DNA from: Candidatus Delongbacteria bacterium
GTDB lineage: Bacteria; UBA4055
Direction of reading: 5' to 3'
DNA length: 60,491 nucleotides
Assembly: GCA_003252515.1 (NCBI GenBank)
Contig: QKDR01000029.1
Coordinates: forward strand, 1-60,491
Shown in pieces: positions 23,205-51,765 of the stretch. Every line of letters starts with the position of its first letter. Within the stretch, counting starts at the first letter, position 1. The translations under genes and the position numbers were made by a program. The notes beneath the pieces were generated by a model. That model did not search any database and was not told the origin of the DNA. It saw only the letters and a list, made by a program, of their open reading frames with translations.

Positions 23205-23205
23205 T

Positions 23206-24162: not shown

Positions 24163-24164
24163 TT

Positions 24165-25518: not shown

Positions 25519-26249
25519 TTACTTTTTAGGAGTAATGGACAAAAAGTGGGTGTTATTTAGACAATAAATAGTCAGTAACTTTCTTCTTTTTTCGATCTTC
25601 ATTCCGTTATGAACTCTGAGCTTCATTTTAATCTTTGAAAACATCCCTTCGATGGAATTAGAAGTATCTGGCATGAGCAGATCAGGGTATTTTTGATAAG
25701 TAAACAGATATGGGAGATTATTTACTAGACTACGATAGGCACTTCTAAGTCTTTTATGCGTAAAATGAAATTTCTTAGTCTCGATATTATAAGTTCTCTG
25801 CTTAAGAAAGAACTCCCATCTTTCATTTCATTCGTAGAGTAAGCACTCAAATTCGTCTCTGCTCGAATTAGTAAGCTTGGCAGCAATCTCTTTCAATTCG
25901 ATTCCCGGTTGTAATTTCGGTTTTCTTGTTATGTATCTTGTGATTATAGCTACCTGATAAAACTGACAAGCTGAACACGGATAGATCCGAACGAGTTAAG
26001 AATACCTCTTTTGCCATCACAAACGATGCCTAATATTTTCCAGCCTTGATCCTGCAAATGTTTTATGCCTGATATGTATTCGCTGTTTGTTTCATAACTG
26101 ACATATTTCCAATAAATATTCCTCTTCGTGATATAATCTCTGAACAACATTACACCGAAGCCTCTTCTTATATAGGATGTATCCATTATAATCAGGCATT
26201 TATCTGGTATGATCTCTTTTGTATTGATATTTATCTCAGAGAACCTTAT
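25519..26249 (-). pseudogene. DDE transposase remnant (N-terminally truncated, one frameshift, one in-frame TGA)
   Basis: One frame gives LIIMDTSYIRRG...ILGIVCDGKRG...IRVQL, then stops at 25950. One frame over it continues CQFYQVAIITRY...LLYE*NERW...THKRLRSAYRSLVNNLPYLFTY...NSIEGMFSKIKMKL. Candidate D, D and E residues are visible. Only about 20 codons precede the first D. Confidence 0.7.
25523..25552. repeat. IS terminal inverted repeat (left)
   Basis: See the mobile element entry. 28 of 30 positions match the reverse complement of 26350..26379. Confidence 0.8.
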
Positions 26250-26412: not shown

Positions 26413-26730
26413 CTACCCGTTCACGGCCCTGATATCGAACTCCTCGACCACATCAAGCACTTTATCCGCGAACTCACTGATGATCTCGTAAAAAGCCTCG
26501 TTCTTGTTGTTCCTAGTCTTCTCGACGACTCCATGCCTTTTAAGTATCGCCAGCTGCTGGGAAACGATCGGGAAAGGTTCGTTGATACATTCGGCCATGT
26601 TCCCGACCCTGCATCTTTCCTCTCTTAATGCCAGAAGCAGATTGATCCTCTTCGGATTACTGAGCGCTTTGAATATCGTAGCCAGTTCCTCATGGTTCTT
26701 CAGATATGTCTTTTTATCTTCATTCTTCAT
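26413..26730 (-). CDS. ArsR/SmtB-family transcriptional regulator
   Basis: ATIFKALSNPKRINLLLAL...CRVGNMAECINEPFPIVSQQLAILKRHGVV is a winged-HTH ArsR signature. It is the last gene of the thioredoxin/OsmC operon. Confidence 0.8.
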   Translation of the reverse strand: MKNEDKKTYLKNHEELATIFKALSNPKRINLLLALREERCRVGNMAECINEPFPIVSQQLAILKRHGVVEKTRNNKNEAFYEIISEFADKVLDVVEEFDIRAVNG

Positions 26731-27151
26731 GCAGAAGCCTGTTGTTTAAAAAAATTTTATTATGTATGTCGCTTGCTTTTCTGAGCATGGCCGACACACC
26801 GCAGTATTTTTCATGCGATAACTCAACTGCTCTCTTAATTTTTTCGGGGTCAATATCATCCGGACCGGTAATATGGTATTCGATAACGATATTTTTATAG
26901 ATCTTCGGATGCTCTTCAGTCTGCCCCGCATCGACCGTAATTGTGAGATCATCGTATTTAACATGCATTTTCTGAAGTATGGAGGCAACATCCATGCCCG
27001 TACAACCCGCCAGACCGCCCAGAAGCAGTCCTTTCGGCGAAGGTCCCTTATCCTCGCCGCCGAACTCCTTCGCTCCGTCTACGAAGTACTTATGACCTTT
27101 CTGGTCGATCTCGAATGCTAGATTACCCTTCTGTACCGCTTTTATTATCAT
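26720..27151 (-). CDS. OsmC-family protein (thiol peroxidase-like)
   Basis: Two conserved Cys contexts, GGLAGCTGMDV and HEKYCGVSAML. About 143 aa. Confidence 0.7.
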   Translation of the reverse strand: MIIKAVQKGNLAFEIDQKGHKYFVDGAKEFGGEDKGPSPKGLLLGGLAGCTGMDVASILQKMHVKYDDLTITVDAGQTEEHPKIYKNIVIEYHITGPDDIDPEKIKRAVELSHEKYCGVSAMLRKASDIHNKIFLNNRLLHEE

Positions 27152-27347
27152 TCTCTTTCCTCTTAATTCTTTTATCGTTTATAACAGAATTTATCATATA
27201 GCCGAAAAAAATACCGTAAAGAACTGAAGTATAGGGATTAGAAGTAATCGGACAGCTGCCGCTTGAACATCCTATAAAATAATAATATGAATAACCCGCC
27301 ACTCCGCCGGTAATGATCAGTAATACTGCAATTAAATTCTTTTTCAC
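27123..27347 (-). CDS. small membrane protein with CxxGxC motif
   Basis: 74 aa with two transmembrane helices flanking FIGCSSGSCPITSNP. It is tightly packed in the operon, with overlaps at both ends. Confidence 0.5.
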   Translation of the reverse strand: MKKNLIAVLLIITGGVAGYSYYYFIGCSSGSCPITSNPYTSVLYGIFFGYMINSVINDKRIKRKENDNKSGTEG

Positions 27348-27766
27348 TATTGCTTCTCTATCGTTTTTTCAGTCGTTTTTCCGGATTTGAAATGTTTCTT
27401 CAGTATATCAAGCATCTGATCTTTGTCTCTGAGGCCCACGAATCCGTCTACAGGTTTTCCTCCGACGAATATCCCCACAGTAGGTATAGACCTTATTCCG
27501 TAACCGCCTGCCGTCCGCCTGTTATTATCAACGTTCAGTTTGCCGAATTTCATTTCAAGGTGATGCTCTTCGGCAATTTCTTCTATAATCGGACCGAGCT
27601 GCTTACACGGACCGCACCATGGCGCCCAGAAATCTACAAGAACAGCTTCTTCCGACTGAACAACCTCTTTCTCAAAATTCTGGTCTGTAATCTCAGTTAT
27701 GTATTTACTCTCACCGTTCAGCATAAATACGGCCAGCAGCAGCATACCTATTAATAATTTTTTCAT
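27347..27766 (-). CDS. exported thioredoxin (WCGPC)
   Basis: Signal peptide MKKLLIGMLLLAVFMLNG, then the thioredoxin fold motif FWAPWCGPCKQLGP. Confidence 0.85.
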   Translation of the reverse strand: MKKLLIGMLLLAVFMLNGESKYITEITDQNFEKEVVQSEEAVLVDFWAPWCGPCKQLGPIIEEIAEEHHLEMKFGKLNVDNNRRTAGGYGIRSIPTVGIFVGGKPVDGFVGLRDKDQMLDILKKHFKSGKTTEKTIEKQ

Positions 27767-27775
27767 CTTAACGCC

Positions 27776-28102
27776 TTATTTTTTAATATATTTATCCAGT
27801 TTCGCTTTTATGTTAGCTTCCGGATGAGCGCCGATAAGTCCGTCAACTACCTCACCATTTACAAAGATCAGCATTGTCGGTATAGACTGGATATTGTAAT
27901 TCATCGCTGTTTCCCTGTTGTGGTCGACGTCAAGTTTAGCGATCTTGAATTTTCCCTGATATTCATCGGCGAGTTTTTCTATTACAGGCCCTACCATTCT
28001 GCACGGAGCGCACCATTCCGCCCAGCAATCAACAAGAACCGGAATATCTGATTTTATCACTTCTTTTTCGAAGTCGGCGTCGTGTACGTGTAATGCTCCC
28101 AT
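27776..28102 (-). CDS. thioredoxin (WCAPC)
   Basis: CWAEWCAPCRMVGP. I prefer the start at 28102 (MGALHV, AAGGAG RBS). The ORF-track start at 28147 lies inside the conserved promoter-proximal block. Confidence 0.85.
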   Translation of the reverse strand: MGALHVHDADFEKEVIKSDIPVLVDCWAEWCAPCRMVGPVIEKLADEYQGKFKIAKLDVDHNRETAMNYNIQSIPTMLIFVNGEVVDGLIGAHPEANIKAKLDKYIKK

Positions 28103-28153
28103 TTGTTTCTCCTTTGTCATTTTAGTTATTTCAAAAATAATTAGCATTGTCGC

Positions 28154-28175
28154 TATTTAGTAAATTTACTAAATA
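28154..28175. promoter_or_regulatory. perfect 22-bp palindrome TATTTAGTAAATTTACTAAATA overlapping the -10 of the trx/OsmC/ArsR operon promoter (candidate operator)
   Basis: Verified base by base to be its own reverse complement. It overlaps the -10 hexamer at 28163..28168. Confidence 0.55.
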
Positions 28176-28191
28176 ACAAAGTGAATGTCAA
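28163..28191 (-). promoter_or_regulatory. sigma70-type promoter (P2) of the trx(WCAPC)-trx(WCGPC)-OsmC-ArsR operon
   Basis: On the minus strand: TTGACA (28191..28186), 17-nt spacer, TAAATT (28168..28163). Confidence 0.55.
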
Positions 28192-28249
28192 GTATTATTT
28201 TTCCGGTTTTAATTGACAGGATGATAAAATATGTTATAGGCAGTAGATA

Positions 28250-28597
28250 TCAGGCTTTTTTGCTTTTTTTCGGCTTCTTTGTCAAATATTTGTCCAGTAT
28301 AGCGTTCAGATCTTCCTCAGGGTCCACTTCCTCAAATCTTTCCAGTTCTTCACCGTTTATTATCACAAGAAGGGTGGGTATATATTTGATATTATAAGTC
28401 TCGGCGATCGGTTTATTTTCATTGTAATTCATTTTCCCGACTTTGAATCTGCCCTTGTATTCGTCAGCAAGATCGTCTATCAGCGGATCGACAATCCTGC
28501 ACTGAAAACACCAGTCGGCGCATATATTTAAAAGCACCGGCATTTCCGACTTAAGCACTTCTTTCTCATAATTTTTTTTGTTGATGATCATTGCGCC
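28250..28597 (-). CDS. thioredoxin-like protein with atypical WCFQC active site
   Basis: ICADWCFQCRIVDP in a thioredoxin-fold context. I prefer the start at 28597 (MGAMII, AGGAG RBS). The ORF-track start at 28660 lies in the promoter-proximal conserved block. Confidence 0.75.
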   Translation of the reverse strand, partial: GAMIINKKNYEKEVLKSEMPVLLNICADWCFQCRIVDPLIDDLADEYKGRFKVGKMNYNENKPIAETYNIKYIPTLLVIINGEELERFEEVDPEEDLNAILDKYLTKKPKKSKKA

Positions 28598-28650
28598 CAT
28601 TATTTTCTCCTGCGTGATTAACATTCTGTTAGCATTGTTGCTATGTAGCG

Positions 28651-28679
28651 AATTAAACAAACTTAAAACAGGTTGTCAA
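28651..28679 (-). promoter_or_regulatory. sigma70-type promoter (P1) of the WCFQC thioredoxin gene
   Basis: On the minus strand: TTGACA (28679..28674), 17-nt spacer, TTAATT (28656..28651). It is followed by a block that is 20 of 24 identical to the one downstream of P2. Confidence 0.5.
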
Positions 28680-28693
28680 GTTTTATTTTTACA

Positions 28694-28723
28694 AATAAAA
28701 AAGGCAGACGATCGTCTGCCTTT
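28694..28723 (-). terminator. rho-independent terminator after the giant hdrA-like gene
   Basis: GGCAGACGATCGTCTGCC palindromic hairpin (28703..28720), followed on the minus strand by TTTTTTATTT. Confidence 0.8.
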
Positions 28724-28727
28724 AACA

Positions 28728-31700
28728 TTACCACACTTCAAGCGCTTCGGTCAGCATGGCCAGCGTCTGCTCCTCCTTGAAACCGAGCTGCTGCATCGCG
28801 CCTGACGGACAGACGGAGGCACAGCTTCCGCATCCTTTGCAGAGAGCAGTATTGATATGAGCGAACTCCTTACCGTTCCTCCAGAAGAGTTCCGGAGCTC
28901 CGTAAGGACAAACGGACACGCACATTCCACAACCCGAGCAGACATCAAGGTCCACCTTGGCGATATTGGCTTCGGATATATATTTGTCCGAACTTATTAT
29001 CATACTTGCTCTTTCCGCTGCCGCTTTCGCCTGAGAGATAGTCTCTTCTATCCCCTTGGGAGAATGAGCCAGTCCGGCGAGGAATATCCCTTCGGCTGAG
29101 AAATCGACCGGCCTTAGTTTTACATGCGCTTCCATAAAGAAGTTGTCTTCATTCAATGGAATCTTGAGCATCTGTGAAAGAGTGACCGCATCTTCTCTCG
29201 GTACCATCGCCGATGCAAGAATTACCAGCCCCGGATTGATCACGAGCTCTTCGTTAAGGATATGGTCTTTAACCCTGACCAGCATACCTTTATCCTTTAG
29301 AACAAGGCTCTTGCTGTCGATCTCGACCACGGGTTTGTTATCAGGATTATATTTGACGAAGACTATCCCCATTTCACGAGCCTGTCGGTAATATTTCTCG
29401 TTAAAACCGTAGGTTCTTATATCTCTGTACAGAATGTAGATGTTGACTTGGGGATTCAGTTCTTTCAGTCTTATTGCGTTCTTGATCGACTGGGTACAGC
29501 ATACCCTGGAGCAGTACGGTCTGTTCTCGTCCCTTGAGCCGACGCACTGGATCATCACGACGTTCTTGAATTTCTGATATTTTTTCGGCTCTTTCTCGAA
29601 ATCCTCTTCGAATTCGAGTTGCGTCATTACACCGGGATCCGAGCCGTACAGGTATTCCTCCGGTTTGGATTCGACTGCTCCAGTCGCTATCACGATCACA
29701 CCATGCCTGTACTCAATGGTCTCGTTCTCCGAATTCACGAATGTAGTTTTATAATTTCCTATGTATCCGCCGATCTCGTTTATCTTAGCTTCCGTATAGA
29801 TATGTACGTTCGGATTGTCGTCGAGACTGTCCCTTATCTCAGTTATATACGTCTCTATCTTTTTACCTTCAACATTTTCAGATAACCTGTTGAGATTACC
29901 TCCTAACCGGTCGCTTTTCTCCAGCAGAGCGACTTCGTAACCCTGTTCAGCTATCGACAGAGCTGCGATCATACCCGACAATCCTCCGCCGATGATCAGC
30001 GCTTTCTGCGTAACGTCAAGAGCTACCGTATAGAGCGGTTCGAGAAGTCTTGCTTTACCGACGGCTATCTTAGTCAGACCTTTCGCCTTCTCGGTCGCGT
30101 CCGCGTGATTGTCCTTGTGTACCCAGCTGCACTGGTTCCTTATGTTCGCCATATCGAACAGATAAGGATTGAGCCCTGCTTCCTTGAGCGTCTCCTGAAA
30201 CAGCGCCTCGTGAGTACTTGGGGAACATGACGACACAACTACCCTGTTAAGCTTGTATTCCTTTATTATATCTCTCATCTGTATCTGCGTATCCTGCGAA
30301 CAGGTGAAAAGATTGTCCGACGCGTAAACTACGTTCGGAAGCGTCTTTGCGTACGCAACAACATCTTTCACGTCCACGACGCTGCTGATGTTTATTCCGC
30401 AGTGACATACGAAGACACCTATCCTCGGTGTTTTACCGGTTACGTCAATCTCTTCCGGATAAACTTTTTCCGTTATCTCAGTACCTCTGACTTCCGAAAG
30501 TATCTCCGCAGCTCCCGCGACCGCACCCGAAGCCTGCATCACAGTTTCAGGAATATCTTTTGGCGATACTGCCGGACCGCATACGAAAACGCCCGGTCTT
30601 GATGTCTGGATCGGGTAGATACCGAAATTATCTATGAAATTATACTCGTTCAATCTTACTTTCAGCTTATCCGCAAGATCGGCCGTGTTCTTCTGGGGAT
30701 GCAGACCTATCGAGAGTACTACAAGATCGAATTCCTCTATCGTATTCTTTCCGTCGTCACCGACATAGTAAAGCTCAAGATTACCTGTTTCCGCTATTTC
30801 CTTGATCTTTCCTATCCTGCCTCTTACGAACCTTACTCCTGTCGCTTTGGCTTTATCATAATATTTGTCGAAGTCCTTACCGAAAGCCCTGATGTCCATA
30901 TAGAAGATCGTAGGTTCGACCGTTCCGACGTGCTCTTTAGCGATTATAGCCTCTTTCATGGCATACATACAGCATACCGACGAGCAGTACGGCATAGGGG
31001 ATTCTTCGGTCCTTGATCCGACGCACTGGATCCATGCGATCTTTCTGGGAACCTTTCCGTCGGCGGGTCTCTGAAGGTGACCTTCATAAGGTCCCGAAGC
31101 AGCCAGCACCCTTTCGAACTGGATACTGGTAAGAACGTTCCTGTACCTGCCGAAACCGTATTCATGCATTGCCGTCGGATCATATTTCTCGGCTCCAGTC
31201 GAGACTATTATGGAACCTACGCTTATCTCTATGGTCTCGCCTGTCATTGAATGATCTACAGCACCGGCTTCACATACAGTAACGCACTGCAGACATTCCG
31301 AACATATTCCGCACTCGAGACAGCGTGACGCCTCTTTCTTAACCTGCTCCTCGGAAAATCCCAGTTCGTGCTCATCGAAATTATTAATCCTTTCTTTCGG
31401 GTCCTGTTCGCCCATTTTCGCACGTACTTTTCTCATCACGAACTGGTCTGGCTCTTTAGCCGGGATCAGGTCGTCTCTGACAGTTCTGCCTTCCGTCAGG
31501 TCCTGCTTTCTTAAAAATCTGTCTATGGAAATCGCGGCTTCGTACGCCTGACCTACAGCCTCTACGACCGAAGCAGGTCCCTGTACTGCGTCACCGCCTG
31601 CGAAAATGTCCTTTCCTGTGGATTTGAATGTTAGTTCATCGGCTTTGACCGTGTTCCATTTTGTAACTTCTACGTTATTCCCGTTAAGGAATTTAAGATC

Positions 31701-33185
31701 TGAAGTCTGGGATACTGCCACCATCATGCTGTCGTATTCCTCAGTAATGAACTCTCCGGTCGGTTCGGGTCTTCTTCTTCCCGATTCGTCCCTTACACCA
31801 AGCTTCATCACGGCAAACTTAACCGATTTTATTCTTCCGTTCTCACCGTTTATCTCTACAGGGTTGGTCAGGAATTTAAAATTTATGCCTTCTTCTTCAG
31901 CTGCGACTATCTCGTGCGGCTCGGCCGGCATTTCGCGTCTCGTTCTTCTGTAAACGAGCGTAACGTCGGCGCCGAGTCTTTTGGCGACCCTCGCGCAGTC
32001 TATCGCGGTGTTTCCGCCTCCGATCACAGCGACCTTTTTACCTATCTCGACTTTTTCCTCTCCAAGATTCACTTTCTTAAGAAAATCTATACCGCCGTAA
32101 ACACCGTCCAGCTCCTCTCCCTTTATCTTAAGCGAGAGACTGACCTGCGCGCCGACACCTATGAAGAACGCCTTATATCCTTTTTTCCTTAAGTCCTCGA
32201 AATCTTTCGCAGTCGCGATGTCCGCGCCGGTCTTAAGTTCGATGCCCTCTTTAAGTATCTGCTCTATCTCCCAGTCAAGTTCGTTCCTTGAAAGCCTGTA
32301 AGCAGGAATACATGAGCGCATCATTCCGCCCGGTTTTTTATCTTTTTCATATATAGTGACCTGATAGCCTTTCTGAGCAAGATAGTACGCACATGTAAGT
32401 CCTGCAGGTCCGGCACCTATGACCCCCACTTTTCCCTTATCCTTCGGTACAGGCACATTTTTCTTTTCGAATTCGTCCTGATGCTGATGAACGTAGTCGG
32501 CTATGAACCTCTTGATTGATCTGATCGCTATAGGCTCGTCATATTCCCCTCTGCGGCATTCGATCTCGCACGGATGATGACATACTCTTCCGCATACCGA
32601 CGGGAACGGGTTGTTCTGTCTGATAAGGTCGTACGCTTCTTTGTATTTGCCTTTCGCGGCAAGAGCGACGTACCCCTGAACATGTATTCCCGAAGGGCAG
32701 ACGATCTTACACGGAGCCGTCTCTTTTTTATCGATCACAAAAGCGTTCGGTGATGCCTGAGCGTAAGGTTTATATATAGCTGCTTTCTCCACAAGTCTCT
32801 CGTCGAACACAGATACTGTCGAGATGGGGCAGACGGAAGCACATTCGCCGCATCCGGTACATTTGTCAAGATCGACGAATCTCGGCTTCTTGAACAATTT
32901 TACTTTAAAATTACCTGCCTCACCATCAACAGACAAAAGTTCTGATCCGGTAAGCAGGTCTATATTCAAATGTCTCCCTGCTTCCACAAGCTTGGGAGAT
33001 ATTACACACATAGCGCAGTCGTTTGTCGGGAACGTCTTGTCCAGCTGAGCCATCGTACCGCCTATCGCGGGCGTCTCGTCCATCAGGTATACTTTAAATC
33101 CCGAACCTGCAAGGTCAAGAGACGACTGGATACCGGCGATTCCGGCTCCAACTACAAGTACTGATCCCACTTTATTTTTTTTCAT
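28728..33185 (-). CDS. hdrA: 1485-aa fusion: HdrA-like flavin module carrying a GltD/NfnB-like NAD(P)H module, followed by a complete HdrA module
   Basis: aa 1-150: VVGAGIAGIQSSLDLA...DKTFPTNDCAMCV (HdrA FAD domain). aa ~155-560: CPSGIHVQGYV...NPFPSVCGRVCHHPCEIECRRG, VIGAGPAGLTCAYYL, VAVIGGGNTAIDCAR and FAGGDAV (GltD-like small subunit). aa ~620-905: the rest of the HdrA module, with PYCSSVCCMYAMKEA. aa ~915-1485: RIGVFVCHCGINISS, IIGGGLSGM, PYCSRVCCTQSIKNA and two C-terminal CxxCxxCxxxCP motifs. Confidence 0.8.
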   Translation of the reverse strand: MKKNKVGSVLVVGAGIAGIQSSLDLAGSGFKVYLMDETPAIGGTMAQLDKTFPTNDCAMCVISPKLVEAGRHLNIDLLTGSELLSVDGEAGNFKVKLFKKPRFVDLDKCTGCGECASVCPISTVSVFDERLVEKAAIYKPYAQASPNAFVIDKKETAPCKIVCPSGIHVQGYVALAAKGKYKEAYDLIRQNNPFPSVCGRVCHHPCEIECRRGEYDEPIAIRSIKRFIADYVHQHQDEFEKKNVPVPKDKGKVGVIGAGPAGLTCAYYLAQKGYQVTIYEKDKKPGGMMRSCIPAYRLSRNELDWEIEQILKEGIELKTGADIATAKDFEDLRKKGYKAFFIGVGAQVSLSLKIKGEELDGVYGGIDFLKKVNLGEEKVEIGKKVAVIGGGNTAIDCARVAKRLGADVTLVYRRTRREMPAEPHEIVAAEEEGINFKFLTNPVEINGENGRIKSVKFAVMKLGVRDESGRRRPEPTGEFITEEYDSMMVAVSQTSDLKFLNGNNVEVTKWNTVKADELTFKSTGKDIFAGGDAVQGPASVVEAVGQAYEAAISIDRFLRKQDLTEGRTVRDDLIPAKEPDQFVMRKVRAKMGEQDPKERINNFDEHELGFSEEQVKKEASRCLECGICSECLQCVTVCEAGAVDHSMTGETIEISVGSIIVSTGAEKYDPTAMHEYGFGRYRNVLTSIQFERVLAASGPYEGHLQRPADGKVPRKIAWIQCVGSRTEESPMPYCSSVCCMYAMKEAIIAKEHVGTVEPTIFYMDIRAFGKDFDKYYDKAKATGVRFVRGRIGKIKEIAETGNLELYYVGDDGKNTIEEFDLVVLSIGLHPQKNTADLADKLKVRLNEYNFIDNFGIYPIQTSRPGVFVCGPAVSPKDIPETVMQASGAVAGAAEILSEVRGTEITEKVYPEEIDVTGKTPRIGVFVCHCGINISSVVDVKDVVAYAKTLPNVVYASDNLFTCSQDTQIQMRDIIKEYKLNRVVVSSCSPSTHEALFQETLKEAGLNPYLFDMANIRNQCSWVHKDNHADATEKAKGLTKIAVGKARLLEPLYTVALDVTQKALIIGGGLSGMIAALSIAEQGYEVALLEKSDRLGGNLNRLSENVEGKKIETYITEIRDSLDDNPNVHIYTEAKINEIGGYIGNYKTTFVNSENETIEYRHGVIVIATGAVESKPEEYLYGSDPGVMTQLEFEEDFEKEPKKYQKFKNVVMIQCVGSRDENRPYCSRVCCTQSIKNAIRLKELNPQVNIYILYRDIRTYGFNEKYYRQAREMGIVFVKYNPDNKPVVEIDSKSLVLKDKGMLVRVKDHILNEELVINPGLVILASAMVPREDAVTLSQMLKIPLNEDNFFMEAHVKLRPVDFSAEGIFLAGLAHSPKGIEETISQAKAAAERASMIISSDKYISEANIAKVDLDVCSGCGMCVSVCPYGAPELFWRNGKEFAHINTALCKGCGSCASVCPSGAMQQLGFKEEQTLAMLTEALEVW

Positions 33186-33233: not shown

Positions 33234-33260
33234 AATGAAGGAGCACGAAGCTCCTTCATT
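33234..33260 (-). terminator. rho-independent terminator after the tandem-rhodanese gene
   Basis: AATGAAGGAGC-acgaa-GCTCCTTCATT hairpin. Confidence 0.6.
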
Positions 33261-33266
33261 CTGAAT

Positions 33267-34127
33267 CTATTCGACCGGATTGTCTTTTGTAGCGTTCCAC
33301 TCGTAATAAGCCCCGTCATATACTCTGACTTTTTTGAAATCCATTACGGAAGTCAGTACCGCATAAACAATACCTGCTCTGACGCTTGAAGCGCAGTACA
33401 GGATGATCTCTTTGTCACCTGATATACCGGCAGTCTGCAAAAGTTTAGCTATATCGTCTTTTGATTTTACTGTACCGTCACTGTTTATTACGGTGTCAAA
33501 AACGAAATTCACCGCGCCCGGAATGTGTCCTTTTCTTGTGATATTCGCGTCATCTTTTTCTTTACCGTTGAATTCGTCGCTGCTTCTGACGTCAACCAGC
33601 ATCACACCGTCTTTTTTCATATTGCTTTTTACGTATTCCATTGAAGCGTATTTTGATCCGTCTACCGCAGGAGCGAAAGTAACAGGTTCTACTTTATTGA
33701 TCTTCGCTGACATCTTGCCTCTAGCTTTTGCCCAGCCGCCTGTAATATGACCGTTAAGAATATCTACATTCTTAGCTCCCATATATTCAAGTATCCAGTA
33801 AAGTCTTCCGGCGGCTTTATTCGAACCGGTATCATATACGATGATCTTTTTATCGGGCGTAATTCCTTTTTCGCCTAAATACTTTGCGATCTCTTCTGCC
33901 GGTTTAAGCATTACTTTTATACCTTCCGGATTATACAGCGCGTTAAGATCCACGTTGACAGCCCCGTCGATATGTTTCTTGGCATAATCTTCAGCAGGTC
34001 TTGTTGAAACTATTATCGCGTCACCCGATTTAAGCAGTTTCGCTGCTTCTTTGGCGTCTATAAACCCTCCGAACAGGAATTGTACTCCCGCGATTAAGGT
34101 AATAAACAGAACTAATGATCTTTTCAT
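33267..34127 (-). CDS. exported tandem-domain rhodanese (thiosulfate sulfurtransferase-like)
   Basis: Signal peptide present. Two rhodanese domains: the first is inactive-type (VYDTGSNKAAGR) and the second has the active-site loop YCASSVRAG. Confidence 0.8.
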   Translation of the reverse strand: MKRSLVLFITLIAGVQFLFGGFIDAKEAAKLLKSGDAIIVSTRPAEDYAKKHIDGAVNVDLNALYNPEGIKVMLKPAEEIAKYLGEKGITPDKKIIVYDTGSNKAAGRLYWILEYMGAKNVDILNGHITGGWAKARGKMSAKINKVEPVTFAPAVDGSKYASMEYVKSNMKKDGVMLVDVRSSDEFNGKEKDDANITRKGHIPGAVNFVFDTVINSDGTVKSKDDIAKLLQTAGISGDKEIILYCASSVRAGIVYAVLTSVMDFKKVRVYDGAYYEWNATKDNPVE

Positions 34128-34145
34128 AAGATTTCCTTGCGTTGT

Positions 34146-35237
34146 TTAGAATTTCACCTGCAGCTGTACAAGTATTTCATTGTTGTCAACATCCTGCCAT
34201 TCTTCATCGTTCATTATATAATTGAACTGAAGCCTTGTCCATTCATTGAAGAAATAATTAAATCCGAACGTCATAGTAGTTACAGCCTGATAATCCAGCG
34301 ACATATCTTCGGCTGAGGGATCATATTTATCAATATCTGAATTCGCATCGAAGTATTCGTACTTGAAAACAGGCTGCAGATCCCAAGGCGTCATATATAA
34401 TGCCTGTACGAAATAACCGTTCCTTTTAATTGTTCCCTGGTGAACCACCACGGGTGTACCGTCTCATCCTCCGCCTGTAGTATAGGAACCTTTATCTTCC
34501 GCCTGAATATATTCCGCCTGTACAAGTATATCGGAATATTTGAACTCGAATTCTCCGGCAACCCTGGTTCTCTCGTCTTCTTCGGGCGCTGTGATCACGT
34601 TATAATATTTTCCGAATCTGTAGCTTCCGCCTATGCTGACCATATCCATTGCGTTGTAAACAAGCCTTCCGGCAAACACTTTATTCGGGTTGTCATCTTT
34701 AACACCCACACCATTACCGTTAGTGAGTGACATCGCGTATTTGAATTTTGCGTAATCGTTAACGTCGTAATTACCCTGCAGAAGAACGCCAAGATCCCTA
34801 TCAGGATAGACTAATGTATTTACCACCTTCGATCTTTTTATTGTGTGCAGGCTCTGGCATGGTGTATTCAGTTCAAGACTGAACGGGGATTTGAACTGAC
34901 CCATCGACAGTTTTGCGTATGGTGCAAGACGGGAATAAGTGATAAATCCGTCAAGCAGGAACGGCTGCCCGGCTTCAGTCACGAAAGGGCTTAATTCAAC
35001 TATGATGTAATAGCTGAAATCATACGGAATGCTTCCCAGAAAACCTAATCTTGCTCTGTTGAACGTAAAGCCCATATAATCGTCTGCATCCTCATCGTCG
35101 GACTGCTTATATTCGAACTGAGACTGAATATAGCCGACAACGCTCACTCCTTCATCTGAAGAGGCTTCCATGCATTGTGCCAGCAGTCCTGCAGTCATTG
35201 AAACCATCAGCATGAAAAATAAAATTTTATTCTTCAT
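34146..35237 (-). CDS. phosphate-selective porin O/P-like outer-membrane porin interrupted by an in-frame TGA at 34464..34466 (pseudogene, sequencing error or read-through)
   Basis: ORFs 34464..35237 and 34146..34451 are in the same frame, separated by a single TGA (…YTTGGG*DGTPVVVHQ…). The N-terminal part shows FNRARLGFLG...LLDGFITY...GQFKSPFSLE...PDRDLG (Porin_O_P-like). The C-terminal fragment ends LQVKF, a typical OMP terminal Phe. Confidence 0.6.
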
Positions 35238-35262
35238 TTGATCTCCTTTAATTTAAAATTCA

Positions 35263-35289
35263 GAGCAGGAACTATATAAGCTCCTGCTC
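35263..35289 (-). terminator. strong hairpin (11-bp stem, 5-nt loop) between the rhodanese lipoprotein and porin genes; terminator or attenuator
   Basis: On the minus strand: GAGCAGGAGCT-TATAT-AGTTCCTGCTC, followed by TGAATTTTAAATT. Confidence 0.5.
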
Positions 35290-35298
35290 ATATTTTCG

Positions 35299-36330
35299 TT
35301 ACTTGGCAAGCGTACCTTCAAGAGGAAGATCCACTATTGCCGTCGCATCCCACTTGTGTCCGGTAAGATCGTCATAGATCATCGCGTTAGCACCGTTACC
35401 CAGTGACCATGCGTCATATCCAAGCGCGCCAAGATATGCCGTGATCATTGAAGATGTCTGTCCCGTCCAGCAGTAGGTAACTATCGGCAAGTCAGGATTG
35501 AGAAGGCTCAGATCGATAGGGTTGATCCTGTAAGCTCCGTCAATGTTTCCATAAGTAGTTACGTCAGTTGCAGCCCAGTAATTGTTAATGAAATAGTTCG
35601 TATTGTTGTCGAGAACATCAGTCGCTGTTTTCTTATGGAAATTCTGCGTGATCCAGTATGCTCTGTTAGCCACTATTTCAGCATCCGTGTTACCTTCAAG
35701 TGTAACTGCAGGTAATGCATAAGTTGTCACAGGTACTGTAGCGTTGCCCGGTGCGGCTACCCAGTTGGCATGGTTAAGCTGAGCTGTACCGGCAGACCAG
35801 TAATCGAATCTAAGTTCATTAGCATCTGTAAGAGTAGCAGGATCCGGTTCGCCGTTAGGATTAATATCTGTATGCCATCCTGACATTCCCCACATTATTG
35901 AGAAAGCGTCGGAATAACCTGATAATCTGAGCGCTACCACTGCGTGACATGCGGACTGACCGGTATAGCAGACCACCGCAATTGTTTTCCCTCCGCATGC
36001 TGAGGCGTCAGTAATTATAGTTGCGAGGCTGGAATTTACAGCTCCCGGTATATGTCCTTTTTCGAATAAGGCCGCGCTTCTTATGTCCATTATATAATAG
36101 TCATTTGAAGCATCTGCATCCGTCATTACATCATTGACCGCTGCTGCTGTTTTGATCCAGTTTGTCAGCATGTCGTCTATGCCCATACCTTTGTTATCAA
36201 GATAATTAACAAGGTCCTGAGTCGAGTTGATCGTTACTTCAACGCTGTCGTCATCGTCTGAGCAGCTGATGATGAACATACTTGAGAATAGTACCAGCAC
36301 AATAGCCAGTAATGTGAATCTTTTTTGCAT
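35299..36330 (-). CDS. rhodanese-domain lipoprotein (two rhodanese-like domains)
   Basis: Lipobox FIISCSDDDD. Active-site-like loops VVCYTGQSACH and VTYCWTGQTSS. Confidence 0.7.
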   Translation of the reverse strand: MQKRFTLLAIVLVLFSSMFIISCSDDDDSVEVTINSTQDLVNYLDNKGMGIDDMLTNWIKTAAAVNDVMTDADASNDYYIMDIRSAALFEKGHIPGAVNSSLATIITDASACGGKTIAVVCYTGQSACHAVVALRLSGYSDAFSIMWGMSGWHTDINPNGEPDPATLTDANELRFDYWSAGTAQLNHANWVAAPGNATVPVTTYALPAVTLEGNTDAEIVANRAYWITQNFHKKTATDVLDNNTNYFINNYWAATDVTTYGNIDGAYRINPIDLSLLNPDLPIVTYCWTGQTSSMITAYLGALGYDAWSLGNGANAMIYDDLTGHKWDATAIVDLPLEGTLAK

Positions 36331-36408
36331 TTTGTCCTCCCGGATTTTTTTTCTACCACCTTATTATTACGATCTTAATTTAAGTGAACTCACTTGTTTC
36401 TACCCGCC

Positions 36409-36960
36409 TCATCCGCCGTCGCTTGTTTCTTCTTCGACGACGTCGGGAAGGCTCGGATCAAGCCACTTGGCATATCCGCCTTTAAGGCTCATTACATTTC
36501 TGTAGCCCATTTTCATAAGAGTCTGGGCTGCCAGAGCAGATCTGCCTCCTGATTTACAGTAAACAACTATTTCCTCATCTGTTCCCGGCATTTCGACGAA
36601 CAGATCATTGTCCCAGTACTTTTTGTTCCCGATATTGAACTCAATCATACCTCTTGGAATGTTTACCGTAAACGCATCAGGGTAAGGATACTCTCCGCTT
36701 TCCTCATCTTCCTGATTGATGAACCCTTCTTCGTATTCGGAAGGTTCCCTTACATCGATTACGACTCTTACTTCTTTGTTGTCCAGTTTCGATTTAAAAT
36801 CATCGTAACTGATCTCCGTGATATCTTTCTTCGCTTCACTTACCATTGCTTTGGAATTATCGAAAATCCCGTTCTCGCTGAAACCCTTTCCGCATGATAC
36901 GAGCAGAAGAAGGACAACTGTCAGAGCTGAAAGATATAATATCCGTCTGTTCATCATCAT
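36409..36960 (-). CDS. single-domain rhodanese lipoprotein
   Basis: Lipobox LLLVSCGKG. Canonical active-site loop VVYCKSGGRSALAA. Confidence 0.8.
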   Translation of the reverse strand: MMMNRRILYLSALTVVLLLLVSCGKGFSENGIFDNSKAMVSEAKKDITEISYDDFKSKLDNKEVRVVIDVREPSEYEEGFINQEDEESGEYPYPDAFTVNIPRGMIEFNIGNKKYWDNDLFVEMPGTDEEIVVYCKSGGRSALAAQTLMKMGYRNVMSLKGGYAKWLDPSLPDVVEEETSDGG

Positions 36961-36966
36961 CTCCTT

Positions 36967-38181
36967 TTAAAATGCGGAAAATTTTCCGGTTTTTTCATTC
37001 CATTTTACAAATATGTACGCAAAAAGCAAAAGCACAAGGATCAGTATTACCGATCCGGTATAACCAAGATAATCCGGCAGGAATACTTTTGTCGCTTCGG
37101 GCAGAAAACTGTCGAAGAAAGGCACAACGAAGTTCCTGGCGATCGGAGCAAATACAACGAATCCGAGTGCGGACAGCCATAGTTTAACATGTCCTTCTCC
37201 GGCTCTCCATAATGTTCCGACAGCACAGCCGCCGGCTATCGTCATACCCAGACCAAAGATGAACCCTCCGATCAGAGCTTTCGCCCAGAAGCTCGCGTAT
37301 ACTGCTTTCATTTCTATAGCCCTTACTGAAGTCTCCGCGGCGTTCCCGACACCAAAATACTTGAGAACGGTATAGCCGGTCAGGATCACAAGTATACTGA
37401 TAATGACCGCAACAGGAGCGGTCGCTTCGCCCGTCATGAACGGCTCGCGGAAAGCTCTAACAATACAGAATCTGGATCTCTGAAGAATGAGTCCGAGAAG
37501 CAGTCCGATTATAATATGCCATCCGAGCACCTTCATTCCCGAAGAACCTTCATAGTTATAGTTTCCGGCGACATAAAGAACCGCGATTATCACAAGCCAG
37601 GCCAGCCATTTCTGCCAAGCTCCGTGTTTGCTGTTGCCCGCCAGAAAAGTGTATGATTTTCCCGTGCTCATAAAAGGAAGGACTTCCATTTCCCAGATTA
37701 TATACTTTAAGGCAATATAAGTACCGATCAGAAACCCTAATGCCAGAAACAGAGCTCCGCCAGACAGAGCAGGCAAAGCCGAGAAGAAACCGCCTGTAGT
37801 ACATCCTACTCCGACCATAGATCCTACAGCCATCAATGCGCCTCCGAGAAAACCTTTGAAAAGTTCACCCTTTGGAGCGATCTTGATCCCGAACTCACCC
37901 GAGAATAGAGATGCCGTCATTGATCCTACCACCACCATAATGTTCAAAATGGCGACAGTATGCATGCTTACAGGTGTCGATGTGCTCATACTTTCCCATC
38001 CGAAAGCTCCGAGGAAGTTCTGCCCGATGTTCAGATAGCCTCCACTTGCCCCCCAGGGATACTTCACAACGAACAGAAGGATGTTCAGAACAGCCAGAAG
38101 TACACCTCCGACCCACATCGGCCAGGATTTTGCGAACAGGCTGTCGTATAGTTCCCTGAGCGTTCCGCCTTTTTTAAACAC
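36967..38181 (-). CDS. YeeE/YedE-family sulfur-compound (thiosulfate-type) transporter
   Basis: 404-aa polytopic protein. It has the three Cys-containing half-helix motifs typical of YeeE: GVGCTTGGFF, SRFCIVRAF and AGGCAVGTLW. A TusA-like gene lies immediately downstream. Confidence 0.8.
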   Translation of the reverse strand: MFKKGGTLRELYDSLFAKSWPMWVGGVLLAVLNILLFVVKYPWGASGGYLNIGQNFLGAFGWESMSTSTPVSMHTVAILNIMVVVGSMTASLFSGEFGIKIAPKGELFKGFLGGALMAVGSMVGVGCTTGGFFSALPALSGGALFLALGFLIGTYIALKYIIWEMEVLPFMSTGKSYTFLAGNSKHGAWQKWLAWLVIIAVLYVAGNYNYEGSSGMKVLGWHIIIGLLLGLILQRSRFCIVRAFREPFMTGEATAPVAVIISILVILTGYTVLKYFGVGNAAETSVRAIEMKAVYASFWAKALIGGFIFGLGMTIAGGCAVGTLWRAGEGHVKLWLSALGFVVFAPIARNFVVPFFDSFLPEATKVFLPDYLGYTGSVILILVLLLFAYIFVKWNEKTGKFSAF

Positions 38182-38192
38182 AGCTTTCTCCC

Positions 38193-38420
38193 TTATTTTT
38201 TCTTGATGTAGAACTTATTCTCGCCCTCACCTTCCTCTATGCTGAGAAATTCGTTCCCGGTTTTATTACACCATGCCGGTACGTCAGCTTTTGATCCCGG
38301 ATCCGTACCTATCAGTTCAAGCACCTGTCCGGGCTGAAGGTCCTTCATCGCCTTAGCAAGCTTGATTATAGGCATAGGGCATGATAATCCCCTGCAGTCC
38401 AATGTTTGATCAGCGTTCAT
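38193..38420 (-). CDS. tusA: TusA-family sulfur carrier protein
   Basis: 75 aa. LDCRGLSCPMPIIKLAK is the CPxP motif. Confidence 0.85.
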   Translation of the reverse strand: MNADQTLDCRGLSCPMPIIKLAKAMKDLQPGQVLELIGTDPGSKADVPAWCNKTGNEFLSIEEGEGENKFYIKKK

Positions 38421-38423
38421 TTT

Positions 38424-38918
38424 TCACTCCTCTTTTTTATTGTTATTAGCCCATTTCCCGTCAAGAATATTTGAAAGAACATCTTTTATTTCTTTCTCTT
38501 CTTTAGAATCAGGATGCAGTTTGTCGTTAATGATCCTGCATCTCAGGCTCTGTAGTTGTTTATCAAGCTCTTTTGCTTTAACATATCTTTCTCTTTCAAC
38601 GAAACCTTCTTTCACAGCCATCTCTCTAAGAATATCCAGCACATCGGAAAATTTCACACCCTGAGGGCAGAGAGCGTAACAGGTATAGCATCTGGAACAC
38701 ATCCAGAGAATATCCGATGATAGAACTTCCTTTTTCATTCCCAGGATACACATTCTGATTATTCTTCTGGGATCGTACTCGTCGTGAACTTCCGCCACCG
38801 GACATGCCGCAGTGCATGTTCCGCATGTGAAACACCTCTGTATGTGCTCCGCTCCGGGATGTGAGGCTATCTCGTTCTTGAAGTTCGCATCCATTTCGCT
38901 TAAGACTATCTTGTTCAT
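38424..38918 (-). CDS. HdrC-like 2x[4Fe-4S] ferredoxin subunit
   Basis: CFTCGTCTAACP and CSRCYTCYALCP motifs with HdrC-like spacing. 164 aa. Confidence 0.65.
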   Translation of the reverse strand: MNKIVLSEMDANFKNEIASHPGAEHIQRCFTCGTCTAACPVAEVHDEYDPRRIIRMCILGMKKEVLSSDILWMCSRCYTCYALCPQGVKFSDVLDILREMAVKEGFVERERYVKAKELDKQLQSLRCRIINDKLHPDSKEEKEIKDVLSNILDGKWANNNKKEE

Positions 38919-38933
38919 CAGAATTCTCCTTTA

Positions 38934-39764
38934 CTAAAAAGCTTCGGGTATATTTTTAAGTTCTTCGAATGAAAATACCGGTCCGTCGATACAGACATAC
39001 TTCGAGCCTATACCGCATCTTCCGCATTTCCCTATTCCGCATTTCATCCTTCTTTCGAGCGAAGTGTATATTTTATCGTCCGCGAATCCGAGTTCCTTAA
39101 GAACGGGCAGCGTGAATTTTATCATGATCGGAGGACCGCAGACAACAGCCCACGAATTCGGATCGGGAGCCACTTCTTTTGTGATGGTCGGAACGAATCC
39201 GCAATGCTTAGTCCATCCTTCTACCGATTTGTCAATGGTCAGGTGCAGAAAAAGGTCATCTCTCTTATCCCATTCCTTAAGCTCGTCCTTGTAAATGAGC
39301 AGATCGGGGTTCCTTGCTCCATAGATCACTGTGATCATACCATAATCCGACCTGTGTTCGAGCATATAAACAAGCATCGATCTCAGGGTCGTGAAAGCAA
39401 AACCTCCGCCGATTATCACTACATCCGCGCCTTTGAATTTCTCGACCGGATACCAGTTCCCGAGAGGACCCCTGATACCTACGATATCTCCCGGCTGAAG
39501 ATAATGGATCTCCTTTGTTACGGATCCGGTCCTGTTGACCGTGAATTTAAGAATGTCTTTTTCTGTAGGAGAAGAAGCTATTCCGAATGGGGATTCTCCC
39601 TTTCCGAGCATCGAGAACTCGCAGAACTGACCCGGCATGTAACTGAATTCGTCCCTGTCTTTCTCGTTCACAAAAGAGAGGTCAAATGTTTTAAGGGTTT
39701 TGTCCGGATTCTCGGCAAGGATTTTCTCGACCTTCATCTGTATAGGTAAGTAACCGTTACACAT
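38934..39764 (-). CDS. FAD/NAD(P)-binding oxidoreductase subunit with C-terminal [2Fe-2S] (FlxA / AsrB / sulfhydrogenase-gamma-like)
   Basis: FNR-like fold motifs (MPGQFCEF, RTGSVT, VVIIGGGFAFT) and the C-terminal motif CGIGKCGRCGIGSKYVCIDGPV. The start is uncertain (39764 or 39737). Confidence 0.7.
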   Translation of the reverse strand: MCNGYLPIQMKVEKILAENPDKTLKTFDLSFVNEKDRDEFSYMPGQFCEFSMLGKGESPFGIASSPTEKDILKFTVNRTGSVTKEIHYLQPGDIVGIRGPLGNWYPVEKFKGADVVIIGGGFAFTTLRSMLVYMLEHRSDYGMITVIYGARNPDLLIYKDELKEWDKRDDLFLHLTIDKSVEGWTKHCGFVPTITKEVAPDPNSWAVVCGPPIMIKFTLPVLKELGFADDKIYTSLERRMKCGIGKCGRCGIGSKYVCIDGPVFSFEELKNIPEAF

Positions 39765-40812: not shown

Positions 40813-40814
40813 TT

Positions 40815-49706: not shown

Positions 49707-49717
49707 AAACTACCTTA

Positions 49718-51737: not shown

Positions 51738-51765
51738 TTTGTTCTCCTTTAATTTTTTTAATTTC

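Follow-up and report, generated by a model that had tools for sequence, protein, structure and literature searches.

A probable HdrL-type HdrA with an inserted GltD/NfnB-like cassette at the end of an Hdr/Flx-type gene cluster in Candidatus Delongbacteria

Contig QKDR01000029.1 of a Candidatus Delongbacteria bacterium (assembly GCA_003252515.1), analyzed here over its full 60,491 nucleotides (hereafter, the window), carries on its minus strand a gene for a 1485-residue protein resembling the large HdrA variants known as HdrL or type III HdrA. The gene (28728..33185, stop codon included) is a single uninterrupted open reading frame (ORF) that begins with ATG, with an AGGAG located 10 nt 5′ of the start. 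A sequence-only reading had described its product as one polypeptide in which a complete NAD(P)H module of the GltD/NfnB type is spliced into an HdrA-like module fused to a second, full HdrA. The single polypeptide is borne out: the frame is intact and all quoted motifs are present, namely VLVVGAGIAGIQSS (residues 9–22), CPSG...NPFPSVCGRVCHHPCEIEC (163–210), GAGPAGL (257–263), IGGGNTAID (388–396), YCSSVCC (733–739), VFVCHCGINISS (924–935), YCSRVCC (1224–1230), and the C-terminal pair of CxxCxxCxxxC motifs (1416–1459). Flavin-based electron bifurcation by HdrA-type proteins is one of the few routes by which anaerobes gain low-potential electrons.

The gene is real, and the observation is confirmed far beyond chance. 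In a search covering 5.8 billion proteins, for which all figures given here refer to the best 120 clusters at 90% identity, we recovered at least 88 full-length orthologues (88 of these 120 clusters) of 1440–1570 residues, which match the query over its whole length at 52–88% identity and originate from NCBI, JGI, ENA, and Logan assemblies. The closest named relatives are Delongbacteria (78–79% identity), and a taxonomic scan of one genome per species places the hosts in Delongbacteria, Cloacimonadota, Neomarinimicrobiota, Spirochaetota, Dehalococcoidia, Desulfobacteraceae, and Thermoplasmatota. The HdrA–GltD–HdrA architecture, for which the sequence-only reading had proposed a phylogenetic survey, is thus spread over many phyla. 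That unrelated HdrA and GltD genes were fused by mis-assembly or a frameshift is vanishingly improbable, and we exclude a chimeric assembly because at least 88 independently assembled full-length orthologues share the architecture. Every junction is kept in these collinear proteins from independent sources; all 38 of the predicted iron–sulfur (Fe–S) ligand cysteines are invariant or nearly so (C1019 is retained in 84 of 88), including those at the junctions (C159/163, C622/625/628 and others) and within a permuted NfnB segment described below; a structural model is confident across both insert junctions; and gene order around the gene is conserved among relatives.

Profile searches and module-wise alignment to solved HdrA structures upheld the domain order proposed from the sequence. 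Among Pfam hidden Markov models, Fer4_20 matched residues 156–235, Pyr_redox_2 residues 252–547, and a C-terminal Fer4 dicluster residues 1409–1463. The NCBIfam model PRK12771 ("NAD(P)-binding protein") scored 560 bits over residues 151–659, above its cut-off of 516, which backs the GltD-like insertion, whereas the HdrA and HdrA2 models match in four to five separate stretches and both remain below their cut-offs (for HdrA2, 970 bits in five stretches against 1100). Sequences in the Protein Data Bank retrieved with the protein included HdrA (5ODC_A, E = 4e-192) and NfnI-L (5JCA_L, E = 3e-92). Module 1 starts with residues 1–155 (32721..33185; this and all following parts of the gene lie on the minus strand), of which residues 8–153 align to HdrA 8RVU_a 153–298. 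This part contains a thioredoxin reductase (TrxR)-like Rossmann domain for flavin adenine dinucleotide (FAD) with the motif GAGIAG, the loop TFPTNDC57AMC60, and the first CxxCxxCxxxCP motif (C109–C119) of the inserted ferredoxin domain. The loop (residues 46–61; 33003..33050), with its invariant C57 and C60, is the counterpart of "Cys197" in HdrA and of the Cys59–Cys62 pair in BamE. The core of the insert, a GltD/NfnB-like cassette by both sequence and Foldseek matches, spans residues 156–561 (31503..32720) and is followed by a linker of low predicted local distance difference test score (pLDDT; residues 562–587) and by a permuted NfnB N-terminal segment (residues 588–627; linker and segment together, 31305..31502) that aligns to 5JCA_L 8–47. 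Module 1 then resumes with residues 628–915 (30441..31304; residues 627–894 align to 8RVU_a 300–570), which contribute the second cluster motif of the inserted ferredoxin domain (C628/631/634/638) and the rest of the first TrxR-like domain (TrxR1), including C721/C734/C738/C739 and the pair K744/E691. Module 2 begins at VFVCHCGINISS, as the sequence-only reading had it, with an HdrA N-terminal domain (residues ~919–1050; 30036..30431; C927, C929, C962, C987, C1019) aligned to 5ODC_A from residue 3. It continues with the second TrxR-like FAD domain (TrxR2; residues ~1051–1400; 28986..30035; GGGLSG, C1214/1225/1229/1230, K1235/E1193) and ends, by Pfam and by the alignment to 5ODC_A, with a 2x[4Fe-4S] ferredoxin domain (residues ~1401–1485; 28731..28985), the domain that in HdrA serves as the MvhD-facing entry.

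The second HdrA is neither full nor canonical. Module 2 (residues ~919–1485) matches 5ODC_A 3–235 and 312–642 and skips residues 236–311, the inserted ferredoxin domain; it also lacks the DCxxC, so that the position of HdrA TFPTNDCSIC reads LSENVEGKKIE. Module 1 lacks the N-terminal and the C-terminal ferredoxin domains of HdrA and keeps the DC57xxC60 loop together with both inserted-ferredoxin cluster motifs. Neither protomer therefore shows the canonical five domains of HdrA1; instead, the N-domain cluster, the Cys197-type loop, and the inserted and C-terminal ferredoxin domains are each present once per chain, split over the two modules, along with two TrxR-like FAD domains, each with an adjacent CxxxxCC cluster. 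In the 88 orthologues, the ligands of both FAD-adjacent clusters are all invariant, and the hallmark Lys/Glu pair (K409/E356 in HdrA) is invariant or nearly so in both modules. Judged by its sequence, the pair of modules is one covalently fused, asymmetric HdrA pseudo-dimer, not two full HdrA. The predicted cofactor load of the chain is three FAD and about nine [4Fe-4S] clusters; the sequence-only reading had rightly placed an NAD(P)H site, flavins, and Fe–S centers in one chain, and its counts (two candidate bifurcating flavins and at least five Fe–S motifs) give way to these. In Desulfobacterota homologues of both the HdrL type and the fused-HdrA type, the C60 position is occupied by a TGA (selenocysteine, Sec) in the context NDCSM[U]IISPK (loci fetched for comparison are numbered with the prefix L; L033:2075–2266, L053:1813–2013, L065:9962–10183, and L068:9932–10123 and 15339–15527). 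The Sec at this position marks the CxxC pair as redox-active, and the Cys/Sec pair of these homologues falls at the position of the BamE Cys59–Cys62 disulfide.

The insert sits between residues 298 and 300 of 8RVU_a, with one of the inserted ferredoxin domain's two cluster motifs on either side, and is bracketed by a 1018-residue paralogue from the same gene cluster, which aligns to residues 5–~160 and 611–1484 with 47% identity. The cassette core carries C159/C163, C(198)/202/206/210 with K225, the FAD-binding Rossmann motif GAGPAGL, and an NAD(P)H-binding Rossmann motif GGGNTA followed by YRR, a GXGXXA pattern that suggests NADPH. Its alignment to Pyrococcus furiosus NfnI-L (5JCA_L) splits in two, residues 155–561 corresponding to 48–473 and residues 588–627 to 8–47; given this swapped order, the cassette is a circular permutation of NfnB. 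The permuted segment, which ends in ERINNFDEHELGFSEEQVKKEASRCLEC with the invariant C622 and C625 in EASRC622LEC625G, is predicted with a pLDDT of 81–95. The canonical GltD/NfnB N-terminal motif has four cysteines, and here two come from each end of the cassette (C159/C163 and C622/C625), which together presumably form the distal cluster of the cassette. The cassette is colinear with StnC (8OH5_C 102–576) and with Bfu-type NfnA (9BOV_A 102–575, and 9N5U_A), which are also its best sequence matches (9BOV_A, E = 6e-116; 8OH5_C, E = 6e-108; 365–391 bits, versus 272–319 for NfnB) and rank above 5JCA_L in Foldseek; over the aligned fold, identity is 38–40% with NfnI-L/NfnB and 27–30% with GltD, at a template modeling (TM) score of ~0.8. 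The structure prediction proposed by the sequence-only reading was carried out with AlphaFold2 for residues 1–915 of the chain. The model is confident (pLDDT 86.9, predicted TM score 0.82), the folds of the insert match StnC, Bfu-type NfnA, and NfnI-L, and HdrA 8RVU_a is matched across the insert with a TM score of 0.88. Only residues 46–61, the C57/C60 loop whose partner domain in module 2 lies outside the modeled construct, fall below a pLDDT of 50. The splicing of a GltD/NfnB-type module into an HdrA-like one thus stands, but the module is not a plain NfnB, being permuted, StnC-like, and endowed with Lys225.

A second class of homologues accounts for 30 of the top 120 clusters, mostly from Thermoplasmata and uncultured lineages. 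Part of its insert is duplicated, residues 3–345 being followed by 187–470 again, which yields an extra Rossmann domain. Examples are P0043, P0058, and P0082 (1649–1667 residues) and P0119 (1697 residues), the last of which also has an HdrA N-terminal domain ahead of module 1.

The residues around the cassette flavin bear on whether the chain could bifurcate electrons at two or even three sites, with a genuinely bifurcating NfnB-like FAD, as in NfnAB, served by an NfnA-like partner (a 276-residue FAD/[2Fe-2S] protein of the gene cluster) and one or two Hdr-type sites in addition. Chadwick et al. read HdrA9–11 in this way (PMC9012536), and two bifurcations have been suggested for type II HdrA (PMC12054007). 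R297, the counterpart of NfnB R201, is present in 88 of 88 orthologues, the Lys/Glu pair is kept in both HdrA modules, and the cluster does encode a protein of the NfnA/PyrK family. K225, however, is equally invariant (88 of 88); it occupies the position of the Glu cluster ligand of NfnB (5JCA_L) and aligns with K170 of StnC, whose flavin has been shown to be non-bifurcating, and the cassette is colinear with StnC and Bfu-type NfnA rather than with NfnB proper. Furthermore, the 276-residue protein, the only PyrK-family neighbor of the gene, is sulfhydrogenase-gamma-like: it is nearer to sulfhydrogenase gamma (E = 2e-51) than to NfnA (E = 5e-20) and is always encoded beside a HydB/AsrA-like protein, a NuoEF-type NADH module takes the place of the cassette in positional orthologues, and of the two HdrA flavins fused in BamE, a single one bifurcates. 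Both the permuted order and the StnC-type Lys speak against an additional bifurcation site of the Nfn type and favor an StnC-like entry module; we accordingly regard multiple bifurcation in one chain as unlikely.

The replacement of the cassette is seen in about 25 of the fetched loci, where a positional orthologue with the same synteny, and with flanks 65–74% identical to the 1485-residue protein, lacks the GltD cassette (L020–L029, L035–L038, L040, L043, L045–L048, L051, L057, L059, L061, L062, L066, L067, L070, and L079). In these loci, for instance L037:9983–16039 and L023:3653–12787, the protein is split at the insert point into three genes: one joining the first part of module 1 to a NuoE-like [2Fe-2S] domain, one for a NuoF-like protein for flavin mononucleotide and NADH, and one joining a NuoG-N-terminal-like domain to the second part of module 1 and module 2. 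Some of the loci have DRTGG, CBS, and PHP genes in between. Replacement of the cassette by NuoE/F/G at the same point amounts to the logic of BamGHI/Bfu fused onto HdrA and indicates that the inserted-ferredoxin loop is a port at which NAD(P)H modules can be exchanged. We also considered Sec at C292, with an in-frame TGA behind an apparent split at residue ~295, and rejected it: the ORFs lie 2–5 kb apart, the NuoE/NuoF/NuoG swap explains the split, and 50 of the 88 orthologues have Gly in place of C292.

The gene for the 1485-residue protein does not stand alone: it closes a conserved Hdr/Flx-type cluster of ~26 kb, all on the same strand and with short or overlapping intergenic gaps. The cluster opens with DsrE-like and TusA genes, followed by an MvhD gene, a split HdrA pair, two genes for Fe–S proteins, another MvhD gene, the 1018-residue HdrA, and one more MvhD gene. 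Next come FlxC-like, HydB/AsrA-like, HydG/AsrB-like, and HdrC-like genes, and then genes for TusA, a YeeE-type transporter, two rhodaneses, a porin, and a rhodanese with a signal peptide. The supposed terminators on both sides fared differently. Directly 3′ of the stop codon lies a canonical intrinsic terminator (28700..28723, minus strand) with a 10-bp stem and a T-run. The hairpin that separates the last rhodanese gene from the 1485-residue gene (33234..33260, minus strand) exists as well, with an 11-bp stem, but its T-tract is weak, it was not called by the terminator scan, and it is doubtful that it acts as a terminator.

Within the cluster, the split pair (48021..51007, minus strand) consists of a 429-residue, module-1-like protein with DCSTC and a 561-residue, module-2-like protein with the N- and C-terminal domains, and the 1018-residue paralogue (42223..45279, minus strand) is a fused HdrA pseudo-dimer without the insert; both retain the Lys hallmark. 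The FlxC-like (321 residues), FlxB/HydB/AsrA-like (364 residues), FlxA/HydG/AsrB-like (276 residues, an NAD(P)H flavoprotein), and HdrC-like (164 residues) genes occupy 38424..41780 (minus strand). As a candidate for an NfnA partner, the 276-residue flavoprotein was rejected, being much closer to sulfhydrogenase gamma/AsrB. The three MvhD/FlpD genes (41780..42202, 45301..45741, and 51015..51437, all on the minus strand) were missed by ORF scanning and by the sequence-only reading because each contains an in-frame TGA in the conserved context G-U-HPGDCHY, at 42004..42002, 45525..45523, and 51239..51237, respectively. A hairpin of the form ATTACC-N5-GGTAAT lies ~19 nt 3′ of each TGA, and all three proteins are probable selenoproteins by these signals. 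It was thus correct that no MvhD gene adjoins the 1485-residue gene, but misleading, as three stand in the same-strand cluster. TGA serves as an ordinary stop in 5 of the 22 cluster genes, and the window contains no tRNA-Sec gene, nor any tRNA gene at all. In L084, the locus of the closest relative, a gene for a rhodanese and AAA_SelU protein resembling tRNA 2-selenouridine synthase (23119–24273) is consistent with the use of selenium in the lineage.

Across phyla, the order MvhD, fused HdrA, MvhD, FlxCBA-like, HdrC-like, (FrhB-like), HdrL is kept, and the sulfur genes form an optional insertion. Genes for HdrA–MvhD, HdrC, and HdrB directly follow the orthologue in L004, L009, L010, and L044, and the same trio is found in the NuoEF variant L035 and in the partial locus L042; in L019 and L032, the orthologue is directly followed by MvhD. 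No FrhB-like gene was detected in the window (E ≤ 1e-5).

Beyond the terminator, a block of genes at 26413..28660 (minus strand) encodes three thioredoxins (WCFQC, WCAPC, and WCGPC, the last with a signal peptide), an OsmC-like protein, and an ArsR-type regulator. This apparent thiol-stress unit is separated from the 1485-residue gene by the terminator and is conserved only near the 88% homologue. Further along, ~0.7 kb between the UbiA-family and ArsR genes (25519..26186, minus strand) contain short ORFs of 51–78 residues that resemble degraded transposase fragments. The proximity of the thioredoxins raises the question of whether the protein is an NADPH-dependent thioredoxin or persulfide reductase, its C57/C60 dithiol reducing either the three thioredoxins or persulfides carried by TusA and the rhodaneses. 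HdrA does have the TrxR fold, C57xxC60 is invariant and C60 is Sec in some homologues, BamE Cys59–Cys62 forms a disulfide, TusA and rhodaneses are encoded in the operon, and the arrangement Trx–Trx–OsmC, here accompanied by ArsR, recurs near the 88% homologue. Yet the terminator between the gene and the first thioredoxin is strong, two opposite-strand genes intervene in L084 (fetched separately), and in none of 83 loci searched does a thioredoxin adjoin the gene. Moreover, the CxxC of solved HdrA and BamE functions in cluster ligation or internal electron gating and not in substrate reduction, and one of the thioredoxins and one of the rhodaneses carry signal peptides and would be periplasmic. 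We consider a reductase of this kind very unlikely. Functional coupling of the protein to the three downstream thioredoxins was likewise set aside as unlikely, in view of the terminator, the 0 of 83 loci with an adjoining thioredoxin, and the opposite-strand genes of the closest relative.

The sulfur-trafficking block (33267..38420, minus strand), comprising TusA, the YeeE-type transporter, two rhodaneses, the porin, and the rhodanese with a signal peptide, lies between the HdrC-like gene and the 1485-residue gene. Upstream of the cluster, a weak DsrE2-like ORF (121 residues) and two more TusA genes (51513..52131 and 52650..52865, minus strand) recall the YeeE–TusA–DsrE ("YTD") sulfur-relay clusters. 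The Porin_O_P gene (34146..35237, minus strand; a frame of 364 codons) has an in-frame TGA at codon 258 (34466..34464) in the context YTTGGG[TGA]DGTP, which recurs in all nine orthologous porins checked in Delongbacteria and Cloacimonadota and is followed by ~100 conserved codons up to LQVKF. Single-sequence folds place a hairpin ~13 nt 3′ of the TGA in most of ten sequences, and RNAalifold on a MAFFT alignment returned no consensus structure, the stems being mis-registered in that alignment. We regard the TGA as a candidate site of selenocysteine insertion or other recoding in an outer-membrane porin, and a SECIS-like element in the hairpin as hypothetical.

With TusA, DsrE-like, rhodanese, and YeeE genes embedded in an Hdr cluster, as in sHdr systems, the complex might operate in the oxidative direction, oxidizing sulfane sulfur delivered via TST, TusA, and YeeE and confurcating or bifurcating the electrons onto NADP+. 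In Cloacimonadota, Williams et al. took the same block for a system of sulfur oxidation, proposed for Ca. Stygibacter and Ca. Tenebribacter (PMC8542988), whose genes are among our matches (L017 and L018). However, the CCG clusters of HdrB constitute the catalytic site, and no HdrB (CCG) gene is present in the window (genes for the lipoate-binding protein LbpA were not searched for); the HdrA encoded here is of the large, multi-cluster bifurcating type and not the small sHdrA, 6TJR_A being a weak partial match; and the sulfur block is optional among close relatives. A sulfur-oxidizing system of this type therefore appears rather improbable.

With moderate confidence, we consider the gene to encode an HdrL-type (type III, fused) HdrA, in which a single chain would recreate the asymmetric HdrA dimer, equipped with its own NADPH socket, as the terminal component of an Hdr/Flx-type complex. 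By analogy with solved HdrA, modeled type III HdrA, BamE, and StnC, NADP(H) would exchange hydride with the cassette FAD, which, as in StnC, would probably act as a non-bifurcating converter between two-electron and one-electron transfer. Single electrons would pass from the proximal cluster (C202/206/210 and K225) to the distal cluster and the two inserted-ferredoxin clusters, and from there through the N-domain cluster, built from the module-2 cysteines and C57/C60 of module 1, to the bifurcating HdrA-type FAD. The branch that in methanogen HdrA gives low-potential electrons to free ferredoxin would thus be hard-wired to NADP(H), and one of the two HdrA-type FADs would probably be the sole real branching point, as in BamE. 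The protein may be the terminal part of a cytoplasmic bifurcating or confurcating supercomplex that would further include two HdrA pseudo-dimers, three MvhD, the Flx/sulfhydrogenase-like NAD(P)H module, and the HdrC-like protein. Such a complex might balance NADPH, NAD(P)H, and ferredoxin and, in this lineage, would probably be coupled to sulfane sulfur from TusA, the rhodaneses, and YeeE, a link suggested solely by the lineage-specific gene block.

Several points weigh against this interpretation. All of the electron wiring is assigned by homology, and C57/C60 are presumed to touch the N-domain cluster of module 2. A single bifurcating FAD finds no support at the residue level because both TrxR modules keep the Lys/Glu pair, unlike TrxR2 of BamE, which has Gln768, and the conserved R297 is compatible, by sequence, with a bifurcating cassette flavin. 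In 33 of the 88 orthologues, LE replaces RR past the second Rossmann strand, and thus the nucleotide preference may vary across the family. No HdrB/CCG gene for a high-potential acceptor was found in the 60-kb window (E ≤ 1e-5). Finally, neither the closest relative, L084, nor the Marinimicrobia loci have the sulfur block, so the link to sulfur is lineage-specific.

The exchange of modules also permits a broader conjecture, which we put forward tentatively and hold to be less probable than not by a wide distance. The inserted-ferredoxin loop of HdrA might be a generally swappable socket, accepting either an StnC-type NADPH cassette or a NuoE/NuoF/NuoG NADH–ferredoxin Bfu module. In the present cluster, an HdrB-less supercomplex of three pseudo-dimers, three Sec-containing MvhD, and the Flx-like module might then use sulfane sulfur from TusA, the rhodaneses, and YeeE, possibly imported via the UGA-recoded porin, as the high-potential partner for NADPH-linked reduction or oxidation of ferredoxin. 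If true, this would be a previously uncharacterized sulfur-coupled bifurcation system in fermentative bacteria of the FCB (Fibrobacteres–Chlorobi–Bacteroidetes) group.

The architecture itself is already known from HdrL, from HdrA9–11 of anaerobic methanotrophic archaea (ANME), and from type III HdrA, and is not a new kind of enzyme. What we add is the exact map of how the two HdrA modules complement each other, the permuted order and StnC-type Lys of the cassette, evidence that Bacteria carry the fused type III form in abundance, and the exchange of the NfnB-like cassette for NuoEF. Within a single operon, the same HdrA pseudo-dimer is encoded once split, once fused, and once fused with an NADPH cassette, and relatives swap the cassette for NuoEF; together, these forms and the swap pin the wiring of the nucleotide module to the ferredoxin-exit branch. 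The finding corrects the over-reading of the protein as two full HdrA plus NfnB and ties together the literatures on HdrL, ANME type III HdrA, BamE, and Stn. These proteins are common in uncultured anaerobes, although to our knowledge neither HdrL nor type III HdrA has ever been purified or characterized biochemically. The window suggests constructs for biochemistry and cryo-electron microscopy.

Among the nearest known systems, HdrL, described in 2009 (PMC2702500, PMC5947623), is a soluble HdrA-like protein of large size that bears one or two GltD-type NAD(P)H domains and is encoded in clusters with MvhD; some members are selenoproteins. A Desulfobacteraceae homologue from a metagenome-assembled genome (L033; 46% identity) has the same order of module 1 first part, insert, module 1 second part, and module 2, with Sec at the C60 position, and the "two NADH domains" of the HdrL description fit the ~1650-residue class with the duplicated Rossmann domain. 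In contrast to HdrL, the present protein has Cys in place of Sec, MvhD is encoded 9–18 kb upstream and not by the next gene, and the neighbors are sulfur-transfer genes instead of dsrABC or fdh. We assign it to HdrL, and liken it to Desulfobacterium autotrophicum HRM2 HdrL1–3, by architecture. For ANME HdrA9–11, the HdrA wiring, Cys197 acting in trans, self-complementary fused HdrA, and the NfnB insertion were described in 2022 (PMC9012536), and in 2025 the type II and type III HdrA classes were defined, including "A9-TRX-C", with a GltD insertion that blocks the ferredoxin site and feeds in NAD(P)H electrons (PMC12054007). The type III proteins (A9, A9-TRX-C, and A10; HdrA9/10/11 of ANME-1) share with ours a ~500-residue NfnB/GltD-like insertion in the inserted ferredoxin domain of an A6-like host without N- and C-terminal domains, the proposal being that the ferredoxin site is blocked and NAD(P)H electrons are fed in. 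Those papers (PMC12054007, PMC9012536), however, found only nine archaeal sequences and thought the type rare and recent, whereas the fused form is abundant in Bacteria; they predicted NAD+ from GXGXXG, whereas the NADPH-type GGGNTA (GXGXXA) and YRR are found here; and they describe neither the circular permutation nor the StnC-type Lys.

In BamE of class II benzoyl-CoA reductase, a cryo-EM preprint shows two HdrA units fused into a dimer in which one FAD bifurcates and Cys59–Cys62 form a redox-active pair (bioRxiv 10.64898/2026.04.10.717634). By its published description, it likewise starts with TrxR1, contains a CxxC there (C57/C60 in our protein), has a single N-domain cluster, a single inserted ferredoxin, and a single C-terminal ferredoxin, and follows the order TrxR1 (CxxC), inserted ferredoxin, N-domain, TrxR2, C-terminal ferredoxin. 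Its partners are the Sec-containing MvhD-like adaptor BamF and a NuoEFG/Bfu module, and the positional orthologues of our protein carry NuoE/F/G modules at the port. BamE differs in that it lacks a GltD cassette and has Gln for the hallmark Lys in TrxR2, where K1235 is invariant here, and it feeds a tungsten benzoyl-CoA reductase and the HdrBC-like BamD, neither of which is encoded here. The cassette itself most resembles StnC (8OH5), whose GltD flavin is a non-bifurcating NADPH entry with K170 at the cluster (PMC10482914), and Bfu-type NfnA (9BOV, 9N5U), with which it shares the permuted order, EASRCLECG after the Rossmann domains, location inside an Fe–S domain of the host, Lys at the proximal cluster (K170 and K225, respectively), and NADPH-type motifs; the host is, however, HdrA instead of a NuoG/HydA-like subunit, and C114 of StnC corresponds to Val169. 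With NfnB/NfnI-L (4YLF_B, 5JCA_L) and GltD, the cassette has in common the fold, the FAD and NADPH sites, and two [4Fe-4S] clusters, but it is permuted, has Lys for the Glu ligand, has no evident dedicated NfnA partner, and is embedded in another protein. Finally, as a whole, the cluster recalls FlxABCD–HdrABC of Desulfovibrio and MvhADG–HdrABC of methanogens in combining HdrA and MvhD/FlxD with a HydG/HydB-like NAD(P)H module and an HdrC-like protein, and it departs from them in having, within the window, neither HdrB nor a hydrogenase, three HdrA pseudo-dimers in place of one homodimer, and an extra NADPH cassette.

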